NCBI GenBank assembly: GCA_030670715.1
Contig: DAOVBC010000001.1
Span: 1 to 28,364, forward strand
DNA: 28,364 bases
DNA from: Deltaproteobacteria bacterium
GTDB lineage: Bacteria; Desulfobacterota; Desulfobacteria; Desulfobacterales; SG8-13
Direction: 5' to 3'
In this document: in pieces, positions 23,320-28,364 of the stretch
Position numbering within the stretch: the stretch's first letter is position 1
How the letters are laid out: each line of letters starts with the position of its first letter
Program-made: the position numbers and the translations under genes
The notes under the pieces: generated by a model
Seen by the model: the letters and a program-made list of their open reading frames with translations, nothing else
What the model was told of the DNA's origin: nothing
Database searches by the model: none

Positions 23320-23402
23320 GTTGCGAGTTGCGCGTTTCGGGTTGCGGGTTAAAAAATCGGTTTGCTCATCGCCCGTAACACGCAACCCGCAACCCGAAAC
23401 GC
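23320..23402. repeat. Heptamer tandem/inverted palindrome C
   Basis: GTTGCGA GTTGCGC GTTTCGG GTTGCGG, 24 nt, then CCCGTAA CACGCAA CCCGCAA CCCGAAA. Confidence 0.8.
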
Positions 23403-23456: not shown

Positions 23457-24773
23457 TCACGATAACATATTCACTTCCGCCAAATCCGGTCCCAGGTATG
23501 TGCGCTCATTCTCTCCCAGAATCCCCAGAGACAGGCAGATGAGCGTCCACAGGTGAACCGAATGGTATTTCCCGCCGTAATGCTCTTTCATGTCATGGAT
23601 CTGGGCATGGCAGTTGTGGCAGGGCGTAATACAATAATCGGCTCCGGTCTGGTCGATCTGTTCAAATTTGATTCGGCCGTAGTATCTGCGGGCTTCCGGA
23701 AAACCGGACTGCAGGAATCCGCCGCCGCCGCCACAGCAGAAATTGTTGGATCGATTGGGCGTCATATCGATGAAGTTCTCTTCACCCACCACCGCTTTGA
23801 CTACAAAACGCAGATCTTCGGCAATCGGATCACCGAGGGACTTTCTGACCAGCTGACAGGGATCCTGGACAGTGAACGTTACCTTCAGATCTTTGTTCCA
23901 GTCCGAGTTCACCTTGAGTTTGCCCTCCCGGATCCACCGGGCATAATATTCAATAATGCTACGCGGTTCAAAATTATGCTCGATGTTGAATTTATTCAGT
24001 CCGACCCGGACTGAGAAAAATTCGTGACCTCATTCGGTGTTGAGCAGGACTTTACACGCCAGGTCATCCACTGCTTTGGCTTTTATGCGAACATTTTTCT
24101 CCCACATTTCAGTATCGGCGCAGAACAGGCAGTAATTTTCAGCGGCCCATCCCTTGGAACCGTATGTCCAGTCCGCACCGACAAGATCGAGGATCTTCCA
24201 CATCGGGACCATCTCATCGGGTTCGGTTACCGGTTCCCTGGAGTTCTGGTTCAGGAAAAAGTGCGCCCCCTTTTTATCCATCGGCGCCTGAAGGTTTTCA
24301 AATCCCGGTTGCGTATCCCGGACTTCTTCGGCAACATCCTCAACCACAAACCGCCAGTCTTCTTCAGTGGCACCCATGGCACTGCAGGTTTCGTTCTTGA
24401 AAGCCATCTCACACGATCCACGAATACCTTTGGGCTGGTTCTCTTTGGGCCATCGATTGCGCACATTAAAAACCAGCGCCGGGATATCGATTTTCATCGG
24501 GCAGGCATAGATGCAGCGCTGGCACATGGTACACATCCAGGCCCAATTCGAGTTCAGGACCTCATCGTCCAGTCCCAGGACGGCCAGGCGCAGAAATTTC
24601 CTGGGATCCATATTCTCCAGTCCACTTGCCGGGCAGCCGGAAGAGCAAAGCCCGCAGGTCAGACACGCATTCAGATTACCCCCTTCGGGCAGCAGGTCCA
24701 TCACTTGGTCTTTAAACGTTTTTTCCTTACTTCTCTTTATCTCAATTACCTGAGATGCCATTGTTCCCTCCAC
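23457..24773 (-). CDS. HdrC/HdrD (GlpC/COG0247)-like Fe-S/CCG oxidoreductase, selenoprotein (438 aa, Sec at UGA 24032-24030)
   Basis: CLTCGLCSSGCP and CTMCQRCIYACP ferredoxin motifs. NTE-UGA-GH replaces the ECGH motif and is in frame with 23457..23912 (QDPCQL, NFCCGGGG, TPCHNCH). Strong SECIS-like hairpin follows. Confidence 0.9.
23988..24023 (-). promoter_or_regulatory. SECIS-like hairpin of the Fe-S oxidoreductase
   Basis: GAATTT..TCAGTCCG-GGT-CGGACTGA..AAATTC, with the loop starting 23 nt after the UGA. Confidence 0.85.
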
Positions 24774-24783
24774 AGAAAAGAAG

Positions 24784-24868
24784 TGCCTAAAATTTAAAAT
24801 GCCTAAATTGCCTAAAGTTAAAATCGGTTTTTAACCATTTTTTCATTTTAGGCATTTTAGTGCATTTC
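24784..24868. repeat. 9/7-mer tandem/inverted palindrome D
   Basis: TGCCTAAAA TTTAAAA TGCCTAAAT TGCCTAAAG TTAAAAT, spacer, then TTTTAGGCA TTTTAGTGCA. Confidence 0.65.
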
Positions 24869-24941: not shown

Positions 24942-25334
24942 CTATTCTACATTCAACAGCCGCTTGATGCTCTGGGTGATTTCTTCGGCCGACGCCGGTT
25001 TGGCAATGTAATCGTCGGCTTCGGTGGCCATACCGTCGGCATGGGTATAGCGGGTGGACGTCACGTGGGAGGCAACCGCCGTCAGCAGAATGATCGGTAT
25101 GCTGCAATACTTATCATCCTCTTTCAGCTCCTTGCAGACCGCGTACCCGTCCTTTTCGGGCATCATCACATCCAGCACGATGGCATCCGGCGGGTTTGCC
25201 TGAACCTTTTCCATGCCTTCCACACCGTTGTAAGCAATATCGACTTCAAAGCCTTCCTTTTCCAGGTTCCCCTGAACGATGGCAGCGAAATCGGGCTCAT
25301 CGTCAACGACAAGGATTCGTTTTTGTGTACTCAT
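24942..25334 (-). CDS. Single-domain response regulator (REC only)
   Basis: RILVVDDE, VLDVMMP, LLTA and YIAKP. GGAGGAGG RBS before ATG 25334. Confidence 0.93.
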   Translation of the reverse strand: MSTQKRILVVDDEPDFAAIVQGNLEKEGFEVDIAYNGVEGMEKVQANPPDAIVLDVMMPEKDGYAVCKELKEDDKYCSIPIILLTAVASHVTSTRYTHADGMATEADDYIAKPASAEEITQSIKRLLNVE

Positions 25335-25388
25335 GACATACCTCCTCCATTTGATAACTCTGGTTTTAAATATTCTCTTCACACCTGA

Positions 25389-25470
25389 GCTGAAGGCTGA
25401 AAGCTCAAAGCTGAAAGCAAAAGACTGGTTTCGCTCTTACCCTTTGAGCATTGAACCTTGAGCTTCGAGC
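25389..25470. repeat. Heptamer tandem/inverted palindrome E
   Basis: GCTGAAG GCTGAAA GCTCAAA GCTGAAA, spacer, then TTTGAGC ATTGAAC CTTGAGC TTCGAGC. Confidence 0.8.
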
Positions 25471-26402
25471 TAATTCACGCTCGGCCTGGGATGCAGTCCG
25501 GCGCGTTCCACGATTTCCGGCACCTTTTCTTCCCATTCAATGGCCATAATGTGAAATCCACTCACCCCTTTTACTTCCTTGAGACGTTGTATCGCTTCAA
25601 CGCAGATGTCGATCCCCTCCTGCGCCTGTTTTTCTTTGGGGGTGTCTGCCATCCGCTTGACAATATCATCCGGCACATCCATGCCCGGTACCCGGTTTTT
25701 CATATAGCGCGCCATCCCGGCGGACTTCATCGGGGTAAGACCGGCAAGGATATACACTTTTTCGTTCAGCCCGCGGTCACAGACCTTTTTCATCCAGTCT
25801 TCGAACTTGTCAAGATTGTAAATGCACTGGGTCTGAATGAATTCGACCCCGGCCGCAATCTTCTTCGCCAGGCGGGGGACACGGATCTCATACGGGTCGG
25901 CAAATGGATTGGCCGCCGCTCCGACAAACATCTGCGGTGGCCGCTTGATGTCATCACCGCCCAGGAACTTGCCGTCATCGCGCATGTGCCTGACGGTCTG
26001 GATCAATTGCATGGAGTCGATATCATGGACATTCTGACCCTGGGCACAGTCTCCGAAACTCTGGTGATCGCCGGAAAGACACAGGATGTTGTGGATATCA
26101 AACGACGCCGCCCCGAGGATGTCGCTTTGAAGTGCGATCCGGTTGCGGTCCCGCGTGACCATCTGCAGAACCGGTTCCACCCCCATCAGTTTGAGCCGGA
26201 TACAGGCAGCCAGACTGCACAGGCGTGTCATGGATGTCTGGTTGTCGGTGACATTGATGGCATCGACATGATCCTTGATAAGATTGGCCTTTTCAGTGAT
26301 GACTTCCGGGTCGCTGCCGCGGGGAGGCCCGCATTCCGACGTAACGGCCAGATGCCCGGCAGTCAGAATTTTTTCCAGTTTACTCGGTGTATTCGTGCTC
26401 AT
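25470..26402 (-). CDS. metF: Methylenetetrahydrofolate reductase, flavin subunit
   Basis: SECGPP, INVTDN, VTRDRNR, LCLSGDH, ANPFA and FIQTQ motifs. Confidence 0.95.
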   Translation of the reverse strand: MSTNTPSKLEKILTAGHLAVTSECGPPRGSDPEVITEKANLIKDHVDAINVTDNQTSMTRLCSLAACIRLKLMGVEPVLQMVTRDRNRIALQSDILGAASFDIHNILCLSGDHQSFGDCAQGQNVHDIDSMQLIQTVRHMRDDGKFLGGDDIKRPPQMFVGAAANPFADPYEIRVPRLAKKIAAGVEFIQTQCIYNLDKFEDWMKKVCDRGLNEKVYILAGLTPMKSAGMARYMKNRVPGMDVPDDIVKRMADTPKEKQAQEGIDICVEAIQRLKEVKGVSGFHIMAIEWEEKVPEIVERAGLHPRPSVN

Positions 26403-27067
26403 AGTTCCACATCCTCCCTGACGACTTTGCGTGGTCCTCCGGCTCTGTCGGTGGACCAGTCTTTTAACGGTGATATATTTTCATAGTCATCCATCCGGCC
26501 GAGGGCCTTCAGCCGATCAATGATCAGCTGCCACCCGCACTCCAGCTCTTTGTCTACTTCACATTTACCGGAGGCGGAACCGCCGCAGGGGCCGTTGAAA
26601 ATGCGTTTAGCACAGCGGGATACCGGGCAAATACCGCCGGTGCTGGCCAGAATGCACTGACCGCAACCCTGACAGCGCTCCGTCCAGACACCCCGTGCTT
26701 CGGTAACGCCCATAAAAAGGGTGTTGACACCCGGATAGATCGGCTTGGATTGATATTTTTCAGCCATAAACTGAACGCCGACCCCGCAGGCAATGGAAAC
26801 CACCGCATCATAGTCATCGATGATGTCGCGAATTTCCTCAAGGTATTCGTGATCACACTGCCTCTCCAGGGTCCGCTCTGCGATGTTCACCTCACGGCCC
26901 TGCTGCAGAAAGTGCATCCTTAGCGCCGAGGCCAGAATGCCGACTTCTTTTTTACCGCCGGCCTCGCAGACCGTTACACACTCGTTGCAACCCAGAACAA
27001 GAATGCTCTGGTGATCCTTAATTGTCTCGATGATCTCCTCGATCGGTTTTTTATCGGCAACAATCAT
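26399..27067 (-). CDS. metV: MetV (MTHFR C-terminal-domain Fe-S/Zn subunit)
   Basis: MIVADKKP, GCNECVTVC, RQC, ACGVG and CQGCGQC...CPVSRC...GPCGG...C...CGW. ATGA overlap with metF. Confidence 0.92.
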   Translation of the reverse strand: MIVADKKPIEEIIETIKDHQSILVLGCNECVTVCEAGGKKEVGILASALRMHFLQQGREVNIAERTLERQCDHEYLEEIRDIIDDYDAVVSIACGVGVQFMAEKYQSKPIYPGVNTLFMGVTEARGVWTERCQGCGQCILASTGGICPVSRCAKRIFNGPCGGSASGKCEVDKELECGWQLIIDRLKALGRMDDYENISPLKDWSTDRAGGPRKVVREDVEL

Positions 27068-27091
27068 AAGACATGACCTCACTTTTATCTT

Positions 27092-27177
27092 GGTTTTAAG
27101 TTTAAGGTGTTAGGTTTTAGGCCAACAGGGAAACCGTCAATTTTTTACTTAAAACATAAAACCTAAAACCCGGAACC
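27092..27177. repeat. Heptamer tandem/inverted palindrome F
   Basis: GTTTTAA GTTTAAG GTGTTAG GTTTTAG, 27 nt, then CTTAAAA CATAAAA CCTAAAA CCCGGAA. Confidence 0.75.
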
Positions 27178-27181
27178 ACCC

Positions 27182-27619
27182 CTATGCCGCCTTGGCCTTT
27201 TTCTTGGCCAATTTTATGGGGTTCGGCCCTGCTTCAAGTATTTTTTCATGCATCTCCTGAGCATACTTGACGAACAGCGGGCCGTCACTGGACGACAGGT
27301 TGCACATCCGCACGCGATGGCCGCCGATCCCGATGGTATCAAGCAACTGCTGCGCCTGCTCCACCCGCTTTCGAGCCCTGAAGTTGCCGCTGTTGTAGTG
27401 ACAGTCCCCTTCCCGGCACCCGACGACATAAACACCGTCGGCACCTTTCTCGAAAGATCGCATGATGTGAAGAATGTCGACCTTGCCGGTGCAGGGCACA
27501 CGAATGATTTTAATGGATGTCGGGTAGCTCAATCGCATCGAACCTGCCAGGTCCGCAGCCGTGTACCCTCAGAAATTACAGCAAAAAGCGATAATGATCG
27601 GTTCAAATTCCTTGCTCAT
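27182..27619 (-). CDS. mvhD: MvhD/FlpD hydrogenase delta-type [2Fe-2S] subunit, selenoprotein (145 aa, Sec at UGA 27571-27569)
   Basis: ATG 27619 overlaps the hdrA stop (ATGA): MSKEFEPIIIAFCCNF-UGA-GYTAADLAG, matching the MvhD FxCxxC motif. Then RVPCTGKVD, GADGV and GCREGDCH. Confidence 0.93.
27540..27554 (-). promoter_or_regulatory. SECIS-like hairpin of mvhD
   Basis: GGACCT-GGC-AGGTTC (one G-U pair), with the loop starting 20 nt after the UGA. Confidence 0.65.
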
Positions 27620-28364
27620 AGGACTCCCTCCAGCAATGATTCTACCTTGCACAATATCTGATCGTCCTCATACCAGTTGAGTTCAATGGCTTTTGCGGGG
27701 CATTCCGCCGCACATATACCGCACCCGTGACAGAGGGCCTCGTCTATTTCACTGACGCCTTCGGCGTTGATCTTCGGCACCCCGTACGGACACGACCGGA
27801 CGCAAATGAGACAGGAGGCGCACATTTCTGCGTTAACACAGGCCGTTACAGCCGAAAGGGTGAGCTGATCCTGGGCGAGAAAGGTTGTGGCTCTGGATGC
27901 CGCGGCGTATGCCTGGGCGATTGCCTCGGGCAGCAGGTTGGGGCTGTGGGCCGTGCCGCAGACGAAAATCCCCTCGGTGGCCATTTCCACCGGTCTTAAC
28001 TTGACATGGGCTTCCATAAAGTGACCTTCTGCCGTGCGAGCTAGTTTAACGATGGATGCGAGTTCTTCTGTATCCGAGGCCACCATGCCGGCGCTCAATG
28101 CCAGCAGATCGGCATTCACCCGCAGCGGACGCCCCAAAACGTGGTCGGTAAAGGTTACAGCCACGCCGTTATCCGACGCTTCCGCCACCGGCGGGTTTTC
28201 CGGGTCGTACCTGGAAAACAACACGCCTTTTTCCCTGGCTTCCTTGTAGTAATCCTCCAGGAGGCCGAAGGTCCGTATATCCCGGTAAAGAATGAAAATC
28301 TGACTGTCCGGGTTCAATGATTTTATTTTGAGTGCGTTTTTTACAGCATTCTGGCAGCAGATCC
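27616..28364 (-). CDS. hdrA: Heterodisulfide reductase subunit A-like flavoprotein, C-terminal part (5' truncated by window)
   Basis: ICCQNAVKNAL, LYRDIRTFG, AHVKLRPVE, GIFVCGTAHSP and two terminal ferredoxin motifs (CASCLICVRSCP, CHGCGICAAECP). Confidence 0.93.
   Translation of the reverse strand, partial: ICCQNAVKNALKIKSLNPDSQIFILYRDIRTFGLLEDYYKEAREKGVLFSRYDPENPPVAEASDNGVAVTFTDHVLGRPLRVNADLLALSAGMVASDTEELASIVKLARTAEGHFMEAHVKLRPVEMATEGIFVCGTAHSPNLLPEAIAQAYAAASRATTFLAQDQLTLSAVTACVNAEMCASCLICVRSCPYGVPKINAEGVSEIDEALCHGCGICAAECPAKAIELNWYEDDQILCKVESLLEGVL

Follow-up and report, generated by a model that had tools for sequence, protein, structure and literature searches.

A conserved selenocysteine codon with its SECIS element in a single-CCG HdrD-like Fe-S protein gene linked to hdrA-mvhD-metVF in Desulfobacterales

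Deltaproteobacteria encode a selenoprotein family described as 'Fe-S oxidoreductase (GlpC)-like' (Zhang et al. 2006, PMC1794560), which is listed in a 2026 review as the Fe-S oxidoreductase (GlpC) family with the selenocysteine (Sec) motif 'UGH' (PMC13188914). In Desulfobacterium autotrophicum HRM2, HdrD4 carries an annotation as a Sec-containing protein (PMC2702500), and the selenoprotein is not mentioned in the paper on the Desulfococcus multivorans genome and proteome. The protein analysed here has the same U-G-H motif, the same soluble HdrC-like plus HdrB-like architecture and the same occurrence in sulfate-reducing Desulfobacterales; the family is also clustered with hdrA and mvhD selenoprotein genes and has a bacterial SECIS just downstream of the Sec codon. 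The operons first described were hydrogenase-linked (glpC-hdrA-frhD-frhG-frhA), whereas the present gene accompanies hdrA-mvhD-metVF and an inserted response regulator; there is no essential difference between the proteins. Both the selenoprotein family and the exact Sec site are already catalogued in sulfate-reducing bacteria, and neither is new in kind.

Three further groups of proteins provide a frame for comparison. DsrK, HmcF and TmcB, the catalytic subunits of DsrMKJOP, Hmc and Tmc, contain two cubane-cluster motifs and exactly one complete CCG motif, as does the selenoprotein. The Cys of their T/GECGH motif is what is left of the second CCG motif that these proteins lack; it is strictly conserved, is probably indispensable for the reduction of (tri)disulfides and may bind the cluster (Barbosa et al. 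2024, PMC10861901). In HdrB/HdrD, two noncubane clusters bind the two halves of CoM-S-S-CoB, according to Wagner et al. 2017 as cited in PMC10861901. In EtfD, the N-terminal CCG motif is degenerate and its four remaining Cys bind a linear [3Fe-4S] cluster; the His of CxHC is a ligand of the noncubane cluster that belongs to the other CCG domain, and EtfD is described as non-catalytic (PMC13083937).

Within the window (the whole 28,364-nucleotide stretch that was analysed), the gene and the elements of its recoding site were located as follows.

23457-24773, minus strand: HdrD-like selenoprotein gene, one frame of 438 codons counted from the first GTG
24030-24032, minus strand: Sec codon UGA, codon 248, in the context LLNTE-U-GHEFF (motif NTE-U-GH)
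23996-24014, minus strand: SECIS upper hairpin, 8-bp stem with a GGU apical loop, +19 to +37 from the U of the UGA
23988-24023, minus strand: lower stem enclosing the upper hairpin, 6 bp, GAAUUU/AAAUUC
23457-23459, minus strand: stop codon of the gene, TGA

The list of open reading frames contained a 247-aa ORF (24030-24773) and a 151-aa ORF (23457-23912), both on the minus strand and in the same frame, which the original prediction had joined through NTE-UGA-GH into one protein. Translation with TGA read as U indeed gave 438 residues with a single internal TGA, the 39 codons that separate the two ORFs being all open. The GTG at 24773 is merely the first possible start. Because an ATG at 24761 sits 5 nt behind GGAGGG and homolog alignments start at residues 2-5 of the 438-residue translation, the protein probably starts at this ATG and is 434 aa long. 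Full-length database homologs (n = 120) showed 62-69% identity. Since the best of them is 69% identical, though TGA-bearing orthologs found in genomes reach 83%, gene callers appear to cut the gene in two; the original prediction had expected it to be mis-called as a pseudogene.

The alignment of homologs revealed the expected interchange of Cys and Sec: column 248 was Cys in all 120 full-length database homologs (121/121 aligned sequences) and TGA, in the motif NTE-U-GH, in 29 of 29 orthologous loci, flanked by E247 and H250, which are invariant across the aligned proteins. A total of 49 loci were inspected, and the remaining 20 all had their TGA in the same E-U-G-H motif, including a 37%-identical paralog clade that reads PE-U-GH. 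Of 61 genomes of the same order, 52 contained near-full-length homologs with exactly one TGA (about 80 in all), as compared with 12 homologs without TGA. Sec forms therefore clearly outnumber Cys forms in the searched genomes of this order and, since gene callers cut the gene, the dominant form is under-represented in protein databases. Nothing but the in-frame stop itself would speak for a pseudogene, brought about by an error in sequencing or assembly or by a nonsense allele specific to the strain. This reading was refuted by the occurrence of the same TGA in the homologs counted above and in independent contigs of two marine-sediment metagenome runs, where it was unchanged even in a variant with 11 further differences; the frame contained no second internal stop and no frameshift, and conservation on both sides of the TGA was strongly purifying. 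We consider it to have virtually no chance of being correct.

All the elements predicted to follow the UGA, namely the 8-bp stem, the GGU loop and the 6-bp lower stem, were present at 23988-24023. The upper hairpin, UCAGUCCG-GGU-CGGACUGA, starts 19 nt from the U of the UGA, and the hairpin had a minimum free energy of -18 kcal/mol (z -2.5 against shuffles). Across the 29 orthologs the upper stem was 96% paired, four of its eight pairs showed compensatory changes with both sides changed, and its covariation score was reached by none of 500 shuffles. The lower stem was weakly conserved (69.5% of cells paired in the same orthologs, with the innermost pair kept in 6/29). The PE-U-GH paralog clade has a different stem, yet its GGU loop lies at the same distance. 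Judged by this pattern of conservation, the hairpin is a real SECIS, conserved among UGA-bearing homologs. An Rfam scan of the window at gathering thresholds returned no family; such a scan would not be expected to detect bacterial SECIS elements.

The genome also encodes most of the Sec machinery: tRNA-Sec (74 bits, with agreement from ARAGORN), SelA (605 bits) and a Sec-type SelD, the gene of which carries its own TGA. SelB was not found with TIGR00475 or PF09107 in this 70.6%-complete MAG, and was present in 4/4 relatives of the same family. The missing SelB in an incomplete genome, along with gene callers yielding exactly the two ORFs, would fit an alternative in which the UGA terminates translation and the locus yields an HdrC-like ferredoxin of 247 aa, alone or alongside an HdrB-like fragment with its own start, perhaps only under selenium limitation. 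Termination would leave the conserved SECIS without a role, and no start or ribosome-binding site is properly placed; moreover, the open codons past the UGA are conserved as protein and encode part of a domain fold, and two clades that diverged deeply both retain the TGA at a single column. We regard this alternative as very improbable. As far as comparison of homologous sequences can tell, UGA codon 248 is a real selenocysteine codon, and the locus is one gene rather than two.

The encoded protein comprises three regions.

24489-24674, minus strand: HdrC-like ferredoxin domain (Pfam Fer4_8, residues 34-95), with a match to the 5ODC HdrC chains
23994-24266, minus strand: degenerate N-terminal CCG-like domain, about residues 170-260; the HdrB fold match spans residues 170-435
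23598-23873, minus strand: intact C-terminal CCG domain (PF02754, residues 301-392, E 3.4e-12)

The HdrC-like domain contains two CxxCxxCxxxC motifs (C37, C40, C43, C47 and C81, C84, C87, C91), all eight Cys being invariant, and is predicted to hold two cubane [4Fe-4S] clusters. The C-terminal CCG domain, in which C306, C346, C347, C385 and C388 are all invariant, aligns to the C-terminal CCG of HdrB and is the predicted site of a single noncubane [4Fe-4S] cluster. It was also the sole CCG domain called by Pfam, with no such call in the N-terminal CCG-like domain. The latter keeps two of five motif positions, C215 (NYC replacing CC) and U248 (TE-U-GH replacing CxxC), and its first Cys position reads NS; E-(C/U)-G-H is its only universally kept feature. 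Since only C215 and U248 are left, this domain could not bind a noncubane cluster of its own. The placing of Sec in the ECGH motif of a CCG domain thus held for the E-U-G-H of a CCG-like domain and did not hold for a functional, cluster-binding CCG. An hhalign comparison of the N-terminal pseudo-CCG with the C-terminal CCG produced a 6-column match (ENYC~NNFCC) at a probability of 0.4%, which serves only as a hint of an internal duplication of the CCG domain. The predicted structure model adopted an HdrB/EtfD-like fold (pLDDT 86.8). We think it likely that the locus is one gene for a cytoplasmic single-CCG HdrD-like Fe-S protein of about 434 aa with UGA 248 read as Sec; its chemistry, substrate and physical complex we infer.

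Among the NCBIfam models the nearest were HmcF (183 bits against a cut-off of 750), TmcB (176 against 735) and DsrK (117 against 400), all far below the equivalog cut-offs, and the best Swiss-Prot fold match was HmcF DVU_0531 (TM 0.74). In an alignment with the DsrK encoded by this genome, TE-U-GH and GECGH correspond at each residue, with Cys in DsrK where the selenoprotein has Sec. DsrK has no equivalent of C215, an extra conserved Cys of the selenoprotein. The true dsrK of this genome adjoins dsrM, whereas the selenoprotein gene has no adjacent membrane cytochrome b gene and is flanked by genes for a response regulator and a shikimate dehydrogenase. In methanogen HdrB/HdrD (5ODC; fold match TM 0.6-0.76 by hit), which share the HdrC-like domain and the C-terminal CCG with the selenoprotein, the first Cys of the N-terminal CxxC of HdrB aligns with Sec; in the profile alignment, TE-C-GH matched HdrB TEC-NGC. 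By alignment, Sec takes the place of the first Cys in the lost CxxC and is equivalent to the T/GECGH Cys of DsrK, HmcF and TmcB. Two identities were rejected. HdrD/HdrB of methanogens requires two complete CX(n)CCX(n)CXXC motifs, and the N-terminal domain here keeps only C215 and U248. GlpC was discarded on its TIGR03379 score (38.8 against 279.9 bits), its fold match (TM 0.54, 16% identity) and the absence of glpAB from the window. The label 'HdrD/GlpC-like' agrees with the published GlpC/Fe-S-oxidoreductase UGH family, but the protein is a soluble HdrD-like member of the single-CCG branch with HmcF, TmcB and DsrK, nearer to these than to HdrD or GlpC.

Upstream of the selenoprotein gene, the window contains the following genes.

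24942-25382, minus strand: single-domain response regulator, between metF and the selenoprotein gene, in the same place in 8 related genomes
25470-26402, minus strand: metF, methylene-THF reductase subunit
26399-27082, minus strand: metV, methylene-THF reductase subunit (metF and metV both assigned by synteny and Pfam, MTHFR and DUF5981)
27182-27619, minus strand: mvhD, itself a selenoprotein gene (TGA 27569-27571, FCCNF-U-GY), ATGA-coupled to hdrA
27616-28362, minus strand: 3' part of hdrA, encoding the C-terminal 248 residues; the contig ends here

Full-length relatives of HdrA contain TGA. The predicted genomic link to hdrA-mvhD-metVF was borne out by synteny in 11 of 14 related loci: the order hdrA-mvhD-metV-metF-response regulator-selenoprotein gene-aroE was found in 8 genomes, and the selenoprotein gene followed mvhD in 3 more distant genomes (hdrA-mvhD-gene-metV-metF or metVF-hdrA-mvhD-gene). 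The other 3 of the 14 had no hdrA, mvhD or metVF nearby. Between metF and the selenoprotein gene lie the response-regulator gene and a spacer of 168 bp that contains a palindromic element; scans for sigma-70 promoters, terminators and sigma-54 promoters around the selenoprotein gene gave nothing above chance. Clustering of metF, metV, hdrA and mvhD with a CCG-type subunit is the layout of an Hdr-linked methylene-THF reductase. Mock et al. 2014 reportedly described such a complex, MetFV-HdrABC-MvhD, in Moorella thermoacetica. This type is classed as Hdr-linked MTHFR (PMC8515935). The M. thermoacetica complex has the same gene clustering with separate HdrB and HdrC subunits, whereas one fused, single-CCG, Sec-containing HdrD-like gene is found here, in a sulfate reducer that probably runs the pathway oxidatively. 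Because the gene order is conserved, our analysis indicates that the selenoprotein replaces HdrBC in the Desulfobacterales version of the MetFV-HdrA-MvhD methylene-THF reductase module, within a putative physical complex.

Sec had been proposed to act either as an Fe-S ligand or as a catalytic residue. The catalytic option fits better, because the site corresponds to the Cys of T/GECGH, for which a catalytic role in DsrK has been proposed (PMC10861901). Sec most likely serves as the redox-active residue next to the protein's one noncubane [4Fe-4S] cluster; judged by homology to HdrB, DsrK and EtfD, U248 most likely lies close to this cluster. We propose that the hairpin at +19 to +37 from the U of the UGA would recruit SelB. 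In the protein, electrons would enter via the two cubane clusters and reach the noncubane cluster, and the selenolate, located at the interface of the two CCG-fold domains beside that cluster, would attack a disulfide (or trisulfide) substrate. A selenenyl-sulfide or cluster-bound intermediate would form and then be resolved in one-electron steps, a chemistry that would be closer to that of ferredoxin:thioredoxin reductase than to the two-cluster homolytic mechanism of HdrB, which is inapplicable here since the N-terminal motif keeps two of five positions. His250, two residues past Sec, may complete the coordination of the cluster, as does His583 in the CxHC of EtfD; the motifs suggest that the two His may be equivalent.

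The PDB entry whose fold matched best along the entire protein was EtfD of Mycobacterium smegmatis (9OJN; TM 0.65 by query, 15% identity). Unlike the selenoprotein it is membrane-anchored and 1042 aa long; like it, EtfD has a degenerate N-terminal CCG motif with a His two residues past its first Cys (CxHC, compared with U-G-H). The profile and fragment searches did not list 9OJN. With EtfD holding its linear [3Fe-4S] by four Cys of a degenerate motif (PMC13083937), Sec could instead be a permanent, non-catalytic ligand of a second unusual cluster (linear [3Fe-4S] or [2Fe-2S]) bound by C121, C215, C240 and U248. Among the 120 Cys-type homologs, C121 and U/C248 never vary, and C215 and C240 are almost invariant. 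Many Sec-bearing orthologs, however, have Ser or Asn in place of C240, no Cys occupies the C215 position in the PE-U-GH paralog clade or in DsrK, and E-(C/U)-G-H alone is kept universally. Where EtfD has its ligands at the first Cys and at the last Cys of CxxC, the residues here are N/S and E/S. Sec as a structural Fe-S ligand would have no known advantage, whereas Sec at a redox-active Cys is the rule (PMC1794560). We therefore consider a permanent ligand improbable. Within the catalytic reading, a more specific proposal is that in the resting enzyme the U248 selenolate would sit on the unique iron of the noncubane cluster, through an Fe-Se bond that would give rise to the 'open' S=1/2 state observed for as-isolated DsrK and TmcB, and would come off this iron to attack a disulfide; the disulfide would be the acceptor of an electron-bifurcating HdrA-MvhD-MetVF-HdrD complex that oxidises methyl-THF. 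This is speculative and on balance rather unlikely; if true, selenium would tune the high-potential bifurcation branch in complete-oxidising sulfate reducers.

That selenium is found precisely where DsrK has its proposed catalytic Cys provides independent support for that proposal, and 77Se EPR offers a handle on disulfide reduction by single-cluster HdrD-like enzymes. Our analysis points to this selenoprotein as the likely disulfide-reducing subunit of a putative Hdr-linked methylene-THF reductase in marine sulfate reducers.

Translation of the minus-strand interval 23457-24773 with TGA read as selenocysteine (Sec, U) gave 438 residues with one internal TGA. The ORF list contained this interval as two minus-strand ORFs in a common frame, one of 247 aa (24030-24773) and one of 151 aa (23457-23912). 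The 39 codons separating them were open, so that both belong to a single 438-codon frame carrying NTE-UGA-GH, as originally predicted. The first in-frame GTG (24773) is an unlikely start: an ATG at 24761 follows a GGAGGG by 5 nt, and homolog alignments begin at residues 2-5. The features of the gene are as follows:

24030-24032, minus strand: Sec codon TGA, codon 248 (U248), context LLNTE-U-GHEFF
23996-24014, minus strand: upper hairpin with an 8-bp stem (UCAGUCCG/CGGACUGA) and a GGU loop, at +19 to +37 relative to the U of UGA
23457-23459, minus strand: the gene's own stop TGA
Residues 34-95: 2x[4Fe-4S] ferredoxin domain (Pfam)
Residues 301-392: single CCG domain (Pfam)

A database search with the HdrD-like protein returned 3020 homologs, the best 120 of which were full-length (~433 aa) and 62-69% identical. 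Column 248 was occupied by Cys in 121/121 aligned sequences, and E247 and H250 were invariant. When 61 genomes from the same order were searched in six frames, 52 had homologs. Among near-full-length matches with at least 60% identity, counted from the six-frame table, ~80 contained exactly one TGA and 12 contained none. Six-frame orthologs reached 83% identity versus 69% for the best full-length database protein, a gap which fits the splitting of Sec forms by gene callers. The NTE-U-GH TGA was present in 29/29 excised orthologous loci, and an E-U-G-H TGA was also found in 20 more distant loci, 16 of which form a PE-U-GH paralog clade (~37% identical). The interchange of Cys and Sec at this column and the retention of TGA across relatives confirmed that the TGA is a Sec codon. 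Contigs from two marine-sediment metagenome runs spanned this codon with no difference there; one of them represents a strain variant that carries 11 substitutions elsewhere and keeps the TGA. The TGA can therefore not be a sequencing error or a private nonsense allele, nor the gene a pseudogene.

For one ortholog (L032, G030:C26:36448-37749) the match was listed as containing two TGA codons. In six relatives the contig with the ortholog also carried, 21-38 kb away and on the opposite strand, another Sec-bearing copy with 70-74% identity (genome:contig G007:C21, G010:C20, G005:C18, G012:C12, G014:C36 and G002:C45); none was found in the source genome, a 70.6%-complete MAG.

The hairpin behind the Sec codon had an MFE of -18 kcal/mol (z = -2.5 vs dinucleotide shuffles). 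Across 29 distinct orthologous sequences, the upper stem was 96% paired, with two-sided changes at 4/8 pairs; for example, the loop-closing pair changed from G-C to U-A in six sequences and the basal pair from U-A to G-C in six. The covariation score was reached by 0/500 shuffles, and a shift of the 3' arm by 1-3 columns lowered pairing to 13-49%. The position and the 8-bp stem with its GGU loop were as originally described, and the hairpin was conserved in UGA-bearing homologs. The enclosing 6-bp lower stem (GAAUUU/AAAUUC), part of the same description, was only 69.5% paired, its innermost pair being kept in 6/29, and is not a conserved part of the SECIS. The PE-U-GH paralogs had a different stem (GACCA/UGGUC or ACCC/GGGU) at an unchanged distance and kept the GGU loop. 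The hairpin marks the protein sequence as well: Sec forms read GHE(F/L)F(S/A)VR and Cys forms GHSTYSVW. No SECIS-like hairpin was found behind the gene's own stop TGA.

The source genome (MAG, 2.28 Mb) encoded tRNA-Sec (74 bits vs a cut-off of 47; ARAGORN anticodon TCA), SelA (605 bits) and a SelD bearing its own in-frame TGA. SelB was not found in this 70.6%-complete assembly and scored above cut-off in 4/4 relatives of the same family. Two Sec-type SelD matches, each with an in-frame TGA, were recorded (G000:C7:3935-4861 and G000:C262:3845-4138), the latter cut by the contig end.

The gene product is a soluble single-CCG HdrD-like protein. Its AlphaFold model (pLDDT 86.8, pTM 0.87) matched M. 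smegmatis EtfD from end to end (TM 0.65) and HdrB at residues ~170-435. The top reviewed-protein fold match was HmcF of D. vulgaris (DVU_0531; TM 0.74, 27% identity), followed by Archaeoglobus DsrK-type Hme subunits and Methanosarcina HdrD (TM ~0.7). HmcF, TmcB and DsrK also ranked highest in NCBIfam, all far under their cut-offs. An identity as GlpC was rejected (NCBIfam 39 bits vs a cut-off of 280; E. coli GlpC fold match distant, TM 0.54, 16% identity); "GlpC" is therefore just the COG-style name that the selenoprotein family bears in the literature. The invariant Cys were the eight of the ferredoxin domain, C121, C/U248 and the five of the C-terminal CCG motif (C306, C346, C347, C385, C388), with C215 nearly invariant.

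Sequence comparison suggests that the stretch preceding the intact CCG domain is a degenerate copy of that domain. ENYC aligned weakly with NNFCC of the C-terminal motif. In the family profile T-E-C-G-H aligned with the T-E-C-N-G-C of HdrB from M. marburgensis, so that its Cys falls on the leading Cys of the N-terminal CxxC. The first Cys position was N/S, the second Cys of CC was M/L and the last Cys of CxxC was E/S. Because each noncubane cluster needs all five Cys of one motif (PMC10861901), the degenerate domain is unable to hold one itself. Placement of Sec in a cluster-binding CCG motif, as first proposed, was thus not upheld. The overall interpretation was partly supported: the Sec site stood, and the GlpC label and this placement did not.

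BLASTP against the source genome's own DsrK (646 bits, adjoining dsrM; dsrM-dsrK pair on G000:C320, L083 1-2514) aligned LLNTE-U-GH with ILGGE-C-GH: DsrK has Cys in GECGH, whereas the soluble paralog has Sec at the same site. This T/GECGH Cys is strictly conserved in DsrK, HmcF and TmcB, and was described as what is left of a lost second CCG motif, as probably essential for reducing (tri)disulfides and as possibly cluster-binding in the as-isolated state (PNAS 2024, DsrMKJOP, PMC10861901). A permanent role for Sec as ligand of another, atypical cluster is disfavoured, because the one universal feature is E-(C/U)-G-H: neither DsrK nor the PE-U-GH clade has C215, and C240, common in Cys forms and Ser or Asn in many Sec orthologs, is dispensable. 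The corresponding motif of EtfD is C581-x-H583-C584, in which His583 supplies the remaining ligand to the noncubane cluster of the opposite CCG domain (PMC13083937); judged by its place in the motif, H250 of U-G-H would be the counterpart of His583. We propose that electrons would flow via the two cubane clusters into the one noncubane cluster, that a selenolate at the domain interface would attack the substrate disulfide, and that a mixed Se-S or cluster-bound intermediate would be reduced in one-electron steps. This logic would be that of a cluster plus redox-active-chalcogen site, unlike HdrB with its two-cluster mechanism.

The minus-strand gene order was hdrA 3' end, mvhD, metV, metF, a single-domain response regulator, the gene and aroE. 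The mvhD ATG overlaps the hdrA stop (ATGA coupling), and mvhD also carries a Sec codon:

27182-27619, minus strand: mvhD, Sec codon TGA at 27569-27571 (MSKEFEPIIIAFCCNF-U-GY), context FCCNF-U-GY

The ORF list gave mvhD only as the 118-aa part after this TGA. Eight related genomes had the identical order from hdrA through aroE. In three that are more distant, the gene directly followed mvhD (hdrA-mvhD-gene-metV-metF or metVF-hdrA-mvhD-gene), the place that hdrBC would occupy in the Moorella-type cluster. The predicted partnership with HdrA-MvhD-MetVF is thus well supported by synteny. Three other paralogous loci had no hdrA, mvhD, metV or metF neighbours. An intergenic palindromic element lies upstream of the gene (24777-24827) and also at 23320-23402 and 27092-27177. 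In four sediment metagenome runs its summed contig depth was 344-1602 versus mostly <70 over the gene; element-like sequences must therefore occur many times over in those communities.

Members of the PE-U-GH clade (L063-L078, e.g. G005:C2:79832-80962) share the same architecture and occur in most genomes of the order. In 2006 an "Fe-S oxidoreductase (GlpC)" selenoprotein family was reported from Deltaproteobacteria, encoded beside the selenoprotein genes hdrA and frhD/mvhD (PMC1794560), its Sec motif was given as UGH in a 2026 review (PMC13188914), and the Desulfobacterium autotrophicum genome paper named a soluble Sec-containing HdrD, HdrD4 (PMC2702500). The Sec HdrD-like gene is thus confirmed as real, correctly read and already known. 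The only modest addition of our analysis is an explicit residue-level link between the U of this selenoprotein and the Cys proposed as catalytic in DsrK-type enzymes; a deeply diverged second clade with Sec at the same site and a different SECIS stem was also found.
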